This document shows positions 12,431-39,661 of a stretch of 64,000 nt of DNA, piece by piece (within the stretch, counting starts at the first letter, position 1; each line of letters opens with the position of its first letter). This DNA comes from Clostridia bacterium (GTDB taxonomy: Bacteria; Bacillota; Clostridia; Oscillospirales; Acutalibacteraceae), in assembly GCA_017415515.1 (NCBI GenBank), contig JAFQGI010000038.1, positions 945-64,944 of the forward strand. The letters run 5' to 3'. The position numbers were made by a program, and so were the translations under genes. Under the pieces are notes generated by a model. It made no database searches, was not told the DNA's origin, and saw only the letters and a program-made list of their open reading frames with translations.

Positions 12431-12476
12431 AAACCGCAGGCGGTTGATGACAAGCATCAACCGCCTGCGGTTTTAT
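12431..12476. terminator. Strong bidirectional terminator
   Basis: AACCGCAGGCGGTTGATG-acaag-CATCAACCGCCTGCGGTT, an 18-bp perfect stem, followed by TTTT. Confidence 0.75.
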
Positions 12477-12589
12477 ATCATCCCCATCACCCACAGCACG
12501 ATCCCATACACCACACTCGCCACCGTGCCATACGCAATCACCGGCCCGGCTATGGTAAACATTTTCGCACCTACGCCGGGAATGAATCC
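12473..12589 (-). pseudogene. Displaced native 3' end (last ~38 codons) of spoVAC; gene remnant
   Basis: The minus strand reads ..EGFIPGVGAKMFTIAGPVIAYGTVASVVYGIVLWVMGMI*. The intact SpoVAC C-terminus is ..EGFILGVGAKMFTIAGPVIVYGTVASVVYGLIYWVTTLF*. Codon usage is G+C-rich like the host. There is no start codon and no upstream part of the gene. Confidence 0.7.
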
Positions 12590-12632
12590 CTCTGCTGCTG
12601 TCAATATAGGACACACCATTTTTGCAAAAATA

Positions 12633-12661
12633 TTTACATTAAAACGGCGGTGTGGTATAAT
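12633..12661 (+). promoter_or_regulatory. Strong sigma-A-type promoter with extended -10 (TTTACA-17 nt-TGgTATAAT)
   Basis: -35 at 12633-12638, TG at 12653-12654, -10 at 12656-12661. It lies immediately upstream of the 161-aa ORF. Confidence 0.55.
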
Positions 12662-12683
12662 GAAATAAAGCGAGGTGTGGTAA

Positions 12684-13169
12684 ATGAAATATACTTCAAC
12701 AAATATCTTTTCGGATTTTGAGTTTCACGACGCTTATTTTAAATTAGAAAGCATCAAAGACAATACATTAACTATTTCTGTTCGATACTTGAATATCCAT
12801 AAAGGCACTGAACAAAACCCCTATAATACCGATATGGAAATTGAGATTGCACAAATCACTTTTAGCAATTTTAAATTTATTTCATTTGAACCCGGCAGAT
12901 CATGGAAACAAGATGCAAACGGAAAACTCTACACCGATGAACCACAGGTTGTTTTTGAAGGACAAGCAGCAGAAGACAAGTTGCTAAATGAACTTCGTAT
13001 TGGCTCAACTGTTTTCGAATTTGGAACACTCGAAAATGGTAACTATTATTTTGATGGTGCTGGTGATGAGCCTTGGTTCCAAGCGCAGTTCTTATTTGAT
13101 TCTGTTACAATTCAGTGGGATGCGTTTAGAAAACCAGCTTGGTATGAAGAAAGACCATTTAAAACATAG
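12684..13169 (+). CDS. Hypothetical cytoplasmic protein (161 aa) carried on the low-G+C cassette
   Basis: GAGGTG RBS 6 nt upstream, its own promoter and its own terminator. A/T-rich codons contrast with the flanks. No signal peptide or TM segment and no motif I recognise. Confidence 0.7.
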   Translation: MKYTSTNIFSDFEFHDAYFKLESIKDNTLTISVRYLNIHKGTEQNPYNTDMEIEIAQITFSNFKFISFEPGRSWKQDANGKLYTDEPQVVFEGQAAEDKLLNELRIGSTVFEFGTLENGNYYFDGAGDEPWFQAQFLFDSVTIQWDAFRKPAWYEERPFKT

Positions 13170-13204
13170 AAAAAATGCGGCACTAATTTAGTGCCGCATT
13201 TTTA
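13170..13204. terminator. Bidirectional terminator between the 161-aa ORF and spoVAC
   Basis: AAAAAATGCGGCAC-taattta-GTGCCGCATTTTT. Confidence 0.7.
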
Positions 13205-13206
13205 TA

Positions 13207-13650
13207 TTAGAACAATGTTGTAACCCAATAAATTAAGCCGTATACAACCGAAGCAACTGTACCATACACAATAACAGGTCCTGCGATGGTGAACATCTTC
13301 GCGCCGACGCCAAGGATGAATCCTTCGCTCTTAAACTCGATGGCGGGGCTGACCACCGCATTGGCGAATCCCGTGATGGGCACCAGCGTACCCGCCCCTG
13401 CGTGCTTGGCGATGTTGTCGAACACCTGCGCCACCGTCAGCACCGCCGCCAACAGGATCAGCGAGCAGGAGGTGAGTGTGCGCGCCATCTGCAGCTCCAT
13501 CCCTGCCATCACCAGCGCCTGACACTCCACCTCTGCGGCGGCACACAGCAGTCCTCCCACCATAAACGCCCACACGCAGTTTTTCATTTTTGGCGAGGGC
13601 GGCGACGCCTTCTGCGTCATCTCTTTATATTGTGCCTTGGTCGGTTTCAT
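13207..13650 (-). CDS. spoVAC: Stage V sporulation protein AC (SpoVAC); chimeric G+C profile
   Basis: MKPTKAQYKEMTQKASPPSPKMKNCVWAFMVGGLLCAAAE...ITGFANAVVSPAIEFKSEGFILGVGAKMFTIAGPVIVYGT is the SpoVAC family. The ATG at 13650 lies 8 nt after AAGGAG; the track start at 13659 is a GTG overlapping the RBS. The 3' ~115 nt are visibly A/T-richer than the 5' part. Confidence 0.9.
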   Translation of the reverse strand: MKPTKAQYKEMTQKASPPSPKMKNCVWAFMVGGLLCAAAEVECQALVMAGMELQMARTLTSCSLILLAAVLTVAQVFDNIAKHAGAGTLVPITGFANAVVSPAIEFKSEGFILGVGAKMFTIAGPVIVYGTVASVVYGLIYWVTTLF

Positions 13651-13692
13651 CCCCATCACTCCTTATCGGCGGTAGTGTACCCCAAAACCAAC

Positions 13693-13727
13693 AAAAAATG
13701 CCTGTGGCGATTGCCACAGGCATTTTT
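13693..13727 (-). terminator. Terminator after the GH38 gene, directly upstream of spoVAC
   Basis: ATGCCTGTGGC..GCCACAGGCAT hairpin flanked by A and T runs. Confidence 0.65.
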
Positions 13728-13733
13728 CATCTC

Positions 13734-39031: not shown

Positions 39032-39661
39032 TTAGGGTTTGCAGATACCACAGGGAGAATATCCCATATTGATAATTTCCTCCCGACTCATCGTAACATC
39101 TTCGCGATTTTTGGTCGGTAATTTTCTACAGGTAATATAATGAAATTTCTTAGAATCCGTATTTAGCACATATTTTGTTTTTTGTTCTGTAGTTGTAATT
39201 TTCTTCGTTGTTGTAGTCTTTGTCGTAGTGATAATCCTCGTAGTCGTTATCGTCGGAGTTTTCGTGATGGTTGCCCCTTTTGTCGTTGTCACCTTTTGCG
39301 TCGTTATCTTTTTAGTGGTAGAGGTCACATCTTCCGTAACGGACGCTGTGGTGTTTTCAGCCTCCGTAAAGGCAGTCGATACTGTCGTCGTACTGCCCGA
39401 AACAGGAGTCTCCTCCGTCTCTGAAGACTCCGTCATCGGGAATGTGCACAATGTAGCAACCGCCAAAACCAAAGCAAGAATCGGTTTGAGCTTCCCTTTT
39501 ATCCACTTTTTAATCAGGGTTTGCCACTGTTCAATCGGCATCAGTAGTGCAATCGTCAATAAACCAAGCACGGCGGAAAAATGAGGCAAAGAAGCCAACG
39601 CTATCACACCTAAAAACACTACAGCAACCCAAAGCAAGACCTTTTTCATAATTTTCATCAT
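39032..39661 (-). CDS. Membrane-anchored Thr-rich protein with a C-terminal Cys3 (Ada-like) putative zinc-binding motif
   Basis: Two N-terminal TM segments, then a long T-rich spacer (TTTKKITTQKVTTTKGATITKTPTITTTRIITTTKTTTTKKITTTEQK). C-terminus KFHYITCRKLPTKNREDVTMSREEIINMGYSPCGICKP. Low G+C by eye. Confidence 0.7.
   Translation of the reverse strand: MMKIMKKVLLWVAVVFLGVIALASLPHFSAVLGLLTIALLMPIEQWQTLIKKWIKGKLKPILALVLAVATLCTFPMTESSETEETPVSGSTTTVSTAFTEAENTTASVTEDVTSTTKKITTQKVTTTKGATITKTPTITTTRIITTTKTTTTKKITTTEQKTKYVLNTDSKKFHYITCRKLPTKNREDVTMSREEIINMGYSPCGICKP

Follow-up and report, generated by a model that had tools for sequence, protein, structure and literature searches.

Within a 64-kb stretch of a Clostridia contig (JAFQGI010000038.1; the whole stretch is called the window, and all plain coordinates are positions in it), the sporulation gene spoVAC carries a small cassette in its 3' end. 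Judged against syntenic relatives in which the same site is empty, positions 12593-13326 are an insertion. By comparison of sequences we show further that this cassette belongs to a family whose members have the same ends, in most cases also the same promoter, and interchangeable cargo, that it spread horizontally across genera between divergent hosts, and that its end is shared, in variant form, with recombinase-bearing elements occupying the same arrays. The original prediction for this DNA had been an element that integrated into the 3' end of spoVAC and restored the gene with its own copy, and the empty sites support it. The compared loci, which comprise metagenome-assembled genomes (MAGs) as well as metagenome and viral contigs, are labeled with L-numbers (L001 etc.).

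We rebuilt the pre-insertion protein by joining the body of spoVAC to the tail encoded by a remnant downstream of the cassette, and used it as a search query. The closest relatives of this rebuilt SpoVAC (93-95% identical) end in ...GIVLWVMGMI, which is the remnant tail. Three loci, L087, L088 and L089, represent the empty site and share the gene order of the window, with genes for GH94, GH38, SpoVAC, a 1350-aa protein, a DAO-family oxidoreductase and chromate transporters; at each of them 50 bp separate the spoVAC stop from the end of the 1350-aa gene. The 161-aa open reading frame (ORF) of the window, ORF161, is not present at these three sites. Because the remnant tail and its terminator are joined straight to the spoVAC body in these relatives, without ORF161, the intervening segment of the window is an insertion; since it supplies a substitute end, spoVAC is kept whole, with the old end and terminator displaced 734 bp downstream.

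The spoVAC body has 87-90% DNA identity to L087 and L088. Over the remnant, identity to the allele of these two loci is 100% for the last 24 nt and the terminator and 87% for +45..+99, as against an unusually low 73% for the first 45 nt; the aligned sequence past the terminator matches these empty sites exactly as well. The flank on the 3' side of spoVAC is ~97% identical overall to the empty-site relatives, compared with only ~88-91% on the 5' side; as divergence differs between the two sides, the site is a recombination boundary. The same arrangement was found in 12 independent metagenome contigs of the window's species, one of them 100% identical over 20 kb. An assembly artefact was rejected on these grounds, together with the fact that the two copies in the window share no word longer than 8 nt.

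Two side observations concern the surroundings of the site. Between the GH38 gene and the spoVAC start, L088 and L089 (5231-5760 in both) contain two 82-aa ORFs that the window (13651-13733) does not have. Additionally, the contigs of L084, L085, L086, L129 and many of L090-L116 end a few hundred bases or less from the cassette junction or the remnant, as strain-level variation at the site would cause in assemblies.

The features of the locus are listed in Table 1. The limits of the cassette were set at the edge of the duplicated homology (GARGG), which lies at 13322-13326 and 12588-12592, as had been proposed, and the direct repeats that bound it are the spoVAC 3' copies at 13207-13326 and 12473-12592. 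Over 41 codons including the stop, these two copies agree at 31 of 41 protein positions, at 79 of 123 nucleotides (64%, close to the two-thirds first estimated) and at only 12 of 41 third codon positions. Their longest in-register identical run is the 8-mer ATGAATCC (12582-12589 and 13316-13323, 734 bp apart), which had been noticed before at the breakpoints of homology.

Table 1. Coordinates of spoVAC, the cassette and its parts in the window
Feature	Position	Strand	Description
Intact spoVAC	13207..13650	-	147 aa, complete ORF; matches PF03862 and TIGR02838
Inserted cassette	12593..13326	.	734 bp with one repeat copy counted; missing from empty sites; 35% G+C
Replacement spoVAC 3' end	13207..13326	-	EGFILGVG...IYWVTTLF and stop; based on G+C content at third codon positions (GC3) and identity to the L004 cassette
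Bidirectional intrinsic terminator	13171..13203	.	15-bp stem with an A run and a T run on either side; serves spoVAC and ORF161
Cargo gene ORF161	12684..13169	+	161 aa, convergent with spoVAC
Cassette promoter, 5' untranslated region and ribosome-binding site GAAATAAAGCGAGGTG	12633..12683	+	Promoter scan
Conserved non-coding cassette end (junction)	12593..12617	-	In spoVAC sense GGTGTGTCCTATATTGACAGCAGCA, then GAGGG
Displaced native spoVAC 3' end (remnant)	12473..12592(-12619)	-	39 codons and stop, without 5' part
Original spoVAC terminator	12431..12473	-	19-bp stem, directly 3' of the remnant; identical in L087 and L088

Intact SpoVAC is a full-length match to the SpoVAC/SpoVAEB family (PF03862, E = 1e-37; TIGR02838, 161.5 bits). 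It is native up to ~13327, and its last 39 codons fall within the repeat. The remnant, for which a high G+C content, a stop of its own and an adjoining terminator had been described correctly, encodes EGFIPGVGAKMFTIAGPVIAYGTVASVVYGIVLWVMGMI followed by this stop, matches PF03862 positions 83-117 (E = 3e-7) and bears P and A, two residues that are unusual among intact relatives. The extended -10 promoter, the 161-aa ORF and the bidirectional terminator reported between the copies were all recovered. The promoter (12633-12661) reads TTTACA-17-TATAAT with an upstream TG and matches at 11 of 12 positions. The terminator is part of the cassette, as it is kept together with ORF161 in L001-L005. For the junction, the 23-mer has one exact match in the window and none in 100 shuffles, and we regard this stretch as a candidate recombinase-binding arm. 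The TIGR02838 score of the window protein is slightly below the curated cut-off (164), and the gene is solitary: it lies between the GH38 mannosidase gene and the 1350-aa gene of unknown family, with no adjacent spoVAD or spoVAE.

Base composition sets the cassette apart, as had been suggested. The segment 12596-13275 has 35% G+C compared with 56% for the window, the lowest value of all 680-bp stretches in it, and the break is sharp, with a GC3 of 0.28 in ORF161 versus 0.75-0.85 in the flanking genes. Within intact spoVAC, GC3 is 0.28 over the last 25 codons and 0.75-0.80 upstream of them, with 0.75 over the first 16 repeat codons (EGF..AGP). Because GC3 stays high through EGF..AGP and drops only from there, we place the compositional switch at ~13280, which corrects the position of 13325-13335 first given for it by ~45 nt in the downstream direction of the gene. 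The identity profile agrees with this position in that the replacement end is 94-100% identical to the L004 cassette from GCA GGA CCT, ~45 nt past the junction, to the stop, and 78% before. The A/T-rich stretch 13207-13280 is thus clearly foreign by composition, and the G+C-rich stretch 13281-13326 is of uncertain origin. Two more stretches of the window fall below 42% G+C (39032-39661 and ~250-1080), and no flanking direct repeats were found. The former encodes a 209-aa membrane-anchored Thr-rich protein with a Cys-rich end (..KFHYITCRKL..CGICKP), next to a small helix-turn-helix gene.

Homologues of ORF161 were found beside other, divergent spoVAC genes, a search that had been proposed along with the original prediction. 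In L001-L005 the whole cassette is ~90% identical in DNA to that of the window, at a SpoVAC identity of only 57-62%, and it is because such similar cassettes occur with SpoVAC proteins only ~60% identical that we consider the unit mobile. Every cassette boundary in L001-L005 has an exact copy of the junction beside a spoVAC copy (in spoVAC sense TGTCCTATATTGACAGCAGCAGA-GGG), and a motif search in metagenomes yielded 27 more contigs with the exact junction. Across the 37 cassette ends that we compared, the spoVAC copy differs at wobble positions, and the ~25-nt end is invariant, which is partly so by construction, since most ends were retrieved with the junction motif. Most of the 37 share one promoter and 5' untranslated region, which are followed by unrelated coding sequences.

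The 32 cargo ORFs across these ends fall into 24 families, among them lipoproteins and membrane proteins, and further cargo resembles a beta-galactosidase, an alpha-L-fucosidase and a MerR regulator (read from N-terminal sequences only). The cargo of L001-L003 includes a 135-aa lipoprotein, proteins of 165 and 475 aa, and a 498-aa protein with TPR and NucS-type nuclease domains. Cargo also differs between the same flanks in one lineage, as seen in L117 and L131, which are strains or close relatives.

Cassettes are stacked downstream of spoVAC in Oscillospiraceae and Acutalibacteraceae. L001 and L002 have two each and L003 has three, every one bounded by a spoVAC 3' copy; several spoVAC 3' fragments apiece were also present in L102, L099, L121 and L134. 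The arrays reach at least four units and can include ~4-kb cassettes with small operons. The cassette-type tail ...YW[IV]TTLF was found in about 45 of the 120 closest SpoVAC relatives, and occupied sites therefore appear to be common. As observations on the fate of displaced spoVAC ends, in-frame stops were found in L131 (11440-11565) and L003 (5791-5910), and of the copies in L121 (14345-14438; 15347-15575) the third is truncated at its 5' side and the fourth has internal deletions.

The original prediction had described the cassette as tiny and free of a recombinase, and this holds: ORF161 is the only ORF of note in its 734 bp, none in it codes for a recombinase, and the gene lists of the small-cassette arrays contain no recombinase gene either. 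Recombinases came to light in L120, the sole contig obtained from a SpoVAC search of viral contigs, in which three genes in tandem encode large serine recombinases of 549, 567 and 535 aa with the domains Resolvase, Recombinase and Zn_ribbon. A tblastn search with these three proteins against the window returned no relative. About 130 nt past the recombinase genes, L120 has ATGGGTCCTAACTTGACACAAGCAGAGGGG, followed by a 3' fragment of spoVAC and a terminator, after which there is another cassette and another fragment.

Other elements of this kind were found by homology to the L120 recombinase nearest the end. In L121-L124 (79% to that recombinase) the element heads an array of a spoVAC fragment, a 352-aa cargo, a fragment, a DMP19-like cargo, a truncated fragment and a 287-aa cargo; in L129 (74%) the contig stops exactly at the junction, before any fragment; and in L125-L128 (69%) a few genes lie between the triplet and the spoVAC fragment. 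In total, four lineages of triplet-recombinase elements sit in such arrays and are terminated by a homologous end. A NERD nuclease-like protein and DMP19-like proteins are cargo in these recombinase-linked arrays. When the ends of small cassettes and recombinase elements were aligned (alignment A4), they proved to be variants of a single sequence with the shared pattern TG[GT]GTCCTAnnTTGACAnnAGCAGARGG, the conservation of which stops where spoVAC homology begins. One small cassette in L121 bears the recombinase-type end together with the 20 nt upstream of it.

We treat ORF161 as cargo. It has 129 homologues, none of them named, which among species-representative genomes occur in Oscillospiraceae, Acutalibacteraceae, Faecousia and related MAGs; most contigs with such homologues are only ~1 kb long. 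Searches of Pfam, NCBIfam, PHROGs and PADLOC gave no match for it. The AlphaFold model (predicted local distance difference test, pLDDT, 94) consists mostly of beta strands and one long helix, and had no significant fold match in the PDB library or the BFVD library of predicted viral structures. A role as mobility protein was rejected, as there was no family match and no match to a recombinase or nuclease fold. Most cassettes of the family lack ORF161, so it is not needed for cassette movement. ORF161 was not found in 50,697 phage and 72,556 plasmid records, nor was the window-type junction found in IMG/VR. On these results we rejected an origin from a phage or plasmid. Nor is the insert a prophage or an integrative and conjugative element (ICE) with its own integrase, as it comprises 734 bp with one small ORF and no phage or plasmid match.

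The ORF161 gene family seems, from the contexts in which we see its members, to travel in small insertions at many sites. Distant homologues (40-50% identical) occur in a second array type (L036:4213-6546, L026:4826-7450 and L080:5414-6552), where the final ~45-55 nt of a reverse rubrerythrin gene (encoding ..HGKAFEGLLKRYFGK and the stop) occur 4-5 times, in alternation with single small genes and terminators. The cargo of these arrays is on the same strand as the target gene, and no recombinase was found within 6 kb of them. In L044, L071, L045, L061 and L075, local sequence is duplicated as near-identical direct repeats on both sides of ORF161 homologues: a 207-bp non-coding repeat in L044 (4025-4231 and 5641-5847, 99.5% identical), a 103-bp repeat in L071 (196-298 and 1538-1640, 99% identical), which is tRNA-like by eye only, and duplicated terminator hairpins of 36-56 bp at other loci of this set. 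The homologue is well below the local G+C content in most of them. Variation within the family was also observed between two MAGs that are ~96% identical (L010:3706-5650 and L011:6001-6764). There, an ORF161 homologue is fused to an extra C-terminal domain of ~75 aa, which also ends a 223-aa cargo protein in L099, and 63 bp are replaced, without duplication, by a 1244-bp segment that holds one more gene, a terminator and the final 16 nt of spoVAC.

We consider it fairly probable that the insertion is a non-autonomous cassette which was integrated in trans by serine recombinases of the triplet type, and that gene conversion later made its copies mosaic. The attachment site would lie inside the last 40 codons of spoVAC. 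In spoVAC sense, the cassette consists of the substitute 3' end with the bidirectional terminator, the antisense cargo under a putative standard sigma-70 promoter with an extended -10, and the ~25-nt end abutting the displaced native end. Elements that carry three recombinases and share this end would catalyze integration, and possibly excision, of the cassettes, which would then relate to them as a pseudo-SCC does to SCC (the staphylococcal cassette chromosome), or as a cis-mobilizable element (CIME), an integrase-less derivative, does to its parent ICE. After insertion, recombination or gene conversion among the ~120-nt copies would make them mosaic. Here we infer, rather than observe, catalysis in trans, the position of strand exchange, present-day mobility and any benefit of the cargo. 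A site-specific step is favored because the longest identities, 8 nt between the copies and 14 nt between the replacement end and the native allele, are too short for RecA at a naive site, because the non-coding end is strictly conserved, and because the cassette moved between hosts with far-apart spoVAC genes.

Several observations weigh against this interpretation. Neither the window nor the 6-10 kb around any small-cassette locus yielded a large serine recombinase. The exact end subtype of the window, GTGTGTCCTATATTGACAGCAGCAGA, was never seen directly beside a recombinase, and the end of the recombinase elements differs from it by a 3-nt gap and 4-5 substitutions. Further, the spoVAC-proximal end of a recombinase element was not recovered within 10-kb flanks. 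Exchange points look variable and patchy between loci, which a serine recombinase acting at a single dinucleotide does not predict. Finally, the published serine-integrase triplets at the end of streptococcal ICEs target mutT, traG or hsdM, and their insertion disrupts the gene and produces repeats of only 2-8 bp (PMC4701971), whereas here spoVAC is kept intact by a substitute end of ~120 nt and small cassettes share the site. The likeness to these ICEs lies in three tandem large serine recombinase genes at one end beside the attachment site, in like orientation to the target, sometimes with a few genes between triplet and end, as in L125.

The patchiness takes a different form at each locus. 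In L001 only the last codons near the stop are cassette-like, compared with a start of cassette-level identity ~45 nt past the junction in the window and L004. All three copies of L002 agree fully over the first 50 nt past the junction, and those of L121 are alike over the first ~60 nt. Between L117 and L131, a patch from the junction to +38 is hypervariable, and both its sides are nearly identical. Such variable exchange points imply that gene conversion or homologous recombination between the many ~120-nt copies is at work as well. A long target-site duplication, which L002 suggested, was rejected for the window because its copies differ at 27% of positions between the junction and +45. We also rejected a Xer/dif-like site: TTAATGTAAAT was compared by eye with the XerD arm of dif, and the motif is the complement of the -35 box with no 11-6-11 site.

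A serious rival, even though we think it rather unlikely, does without any dedicated recombinase. Homologous recombination, after DNA uptake or transfer from other strains with such arrays, would then have moved the cassettes, with spoVAC 3' copies, promoter and junction as portable homology arms. This would account for the mosaic, variable exchange points within the ~120-nt unit, for the different cargo between the near-identical flanks of L117 and L131, for the replacement of cargo and tail without duplication between L010 and L011, for the partial homogenization of copies within the genomes of L002 and L121, and for small-cassette arrays with no recombinase in or near them. It is hard to reconcile with a first insertion into a naive site at 64% identity with such short identical runs, with the presence of the same cassette in genomes with such divergent SpoVAC, and with an end that is conserved more strictly than the cargo, stops at the spoVAC homology and is shared with serine-recombinase elements. 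That the cassette is the deletion remnant of a large serine-recombinase element formerly at the site, and is itself not mobile, appears improbable. Recombinase-bearing elements with a related end do occupy the same site, but the same 734-bp unit, with the same limits and ~90% identity, recurs where spoVAC is divergent (at least five other genomes), it is also present in the 12 contigs of the window's own species, dozens of single-gene cassettes have its promoter and ends and stand in tandem, and cassette and recombinase elements have no sequence in common beyond the attachment region.

Tandem single-gene cassettes with a conserved repeat between them and diverse cargo, mostly of unknown function, recall an integron, in which a tyrosine integron integrase captures attC cassettes. 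We rejected an integron proper as highly improbable. No IntI or other integrase gene was found beside spoVAC or the arrays (more than 10 loci with gene or Pfam lists), the recombinases linked to the site are of the serine type, and no attC-type hairpin forms when either strand of the 148-nt repeat unit is folded as single-stranded DNA (z-scores -0.3 to -1.2). Additionally, each cassette has its own promoter and faces away from the platform gene, antisense to spoVAC. Hardly any credence can be given to a local duplication of spoVAC with decay of one copy, or to ORF161 as an ancestral neighbor, which could be read from the low-G+C MAGs L009, L011 and L014, where an ORF161 homologue lies beside spoVAC with no detectable remnant. 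In the syntenic relatives ORF161 is missing and the gene runs straight into the remnant tail. Further, there is only one full spoVAC, composition changes abruptly (GC3 0.28 versus 0.74-0.80), and the third codon positions of the copies differ as widely as stated above.

Among known systems, SCC elements with their pseudo-SCC members and composite islands appear to be the closest parallel, followed by the accretion of CIMEs and ICEs in streptococci. SCC elements use large serine recombinases and enter the 3' end of rlmH (orfX) without inactivating it; recombinase-less members stand in tandem with recombinase carriers, with direct repeats from the target 3' end between members. Integration at rlmH (10.64898/2026.03.31.715619) and composite islands with pseudo-SCC (bioRxiv 10.1101/336396) have been described. 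The likeness thus extends to an intact 3' end of a conserved gene, large serine recombinases, recombinase-less members, tandem arrangement and target-derived direct repeats. In the strict sense, SCC is defined by the 3' end of rlmH and by Ccr; the present cassettes target spoVAC and reside in uncultured Oscillospirales. Further, the units described here are far smaller (~0.5-4 kb, mostly with one gene and most with the standard promoter), the duplicated segment measures ~120-145 nt versus ~15-30 nt in SCC, and the associated recombinases come as a triplet.

CIMEs accompany ICEs of the ICESt1/ICESt3 family at the 3' end of fda. They are integrase-less and bounded by the attachment sites of the autonomous element, arise or persist in tandem with the ICE and can be moved by its recombinase, and the target 3' end is restored by the element. 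The spoVAC cassettes are likewise integrase-less, with a restored target end, and would likewise be bounded by the attachment sites of an autonomous element, stand in tandem with it and be moved by its recombinase. In contrast, the integrase on which CIMEs depend is of the tyrosine type, and CIMEs are taken to be decayed ICEs, whereas the recombinases here are of the serine type and the cassettes appear to form a family that has diversified on one uniform plan, with cargo that can be exchanged. With integrons, the arrays have in common mostly single-gene cassettes, diverse cargo, a conserved repeat between cassettes and no recombinase within them, but there is no IntI, attI or folded attC here, the cargo is read from a promoter of its own on the strand opposite the platform gene, and the repeat is a copy of the end of a protein-coding gene.

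Elements that intervene in sporulation genes are known from skin in sigK, SPbeta in spsM and gin in gerE (PMC5025042, PMC5499854, PMC5595907). They resemble the present case as serine-recombinase elements that target sporulation genes of endospore formers, and gin illustrates that such elements can be small and unrelated to prophages. They differ in that they split the gene, which is rebuilt only by developmentally timed excision, whereas spoVAC here is a complete ORF of 147 aa. As it is whole with the cassette in place, excision is not needed for sporulation. In our literature search we found no paper linking spoVAC to gene cassettes or serine recombinases and, judged by title, none evident for the integration site; a search on integron-like arrays in Clostridia returned nothing relevant. 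As far as this search shows, the cassette family is therefore previously undescribed. Compared with the known systems, what differs on our analysis is the spoVAC target, the hosts, the tiny, standardized single-gene units equipped with a promoter, the long substitute end and the recombinase triplet.

In a wider reading, which we put forward tentatively as a real possibility, gut Oscillospirales would carry an integron-like gene-capture platform that runs on serine recombinases, with standard cassettes, serial insertion, exchange across genera and mobilization by triplet elements. Each cassette may follow a standard plan in which the cargo and a common promoter lie between a substitute gene end, which includes the terminator, and a ~25-nt recombination arm. 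The target, spoVAC and perhaps also the reverse rubrerythrin gene, may remain undamaged by serial insertion. To our knowledge, integrons are regarded as absent in Firmicutes, and such a site of gene flow has not been described there.

If this holds, short genes annotated as SpoVAC fragments and hybrid C-termini (~40% of relatives end in the cassette-type tail) would be scars of cassette traffic and not sequencing errors or paralogues. The cargo pool, with ORF161, the TPR-NucS fusion, the NERD protein, DMP19-like proteins, lipoproteins and glycosidases, would amount to a list of accessory genes that selection keeps moving. Recombinase triplets, a defined site of ~150 bp, tiny substrates and natural empty sites make this a testable system, which could show how triplet serine recombinases work and whether passengers are mobilized in trans. 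For the biology of these bacteria, it would mean that spoVAC serves as a dedicated landing pad for small standardized cassettes in a large group of uncultured gut Clostridia, where at least 24 cargo families, mostly of unknown function, would be stacked and traded across genera.

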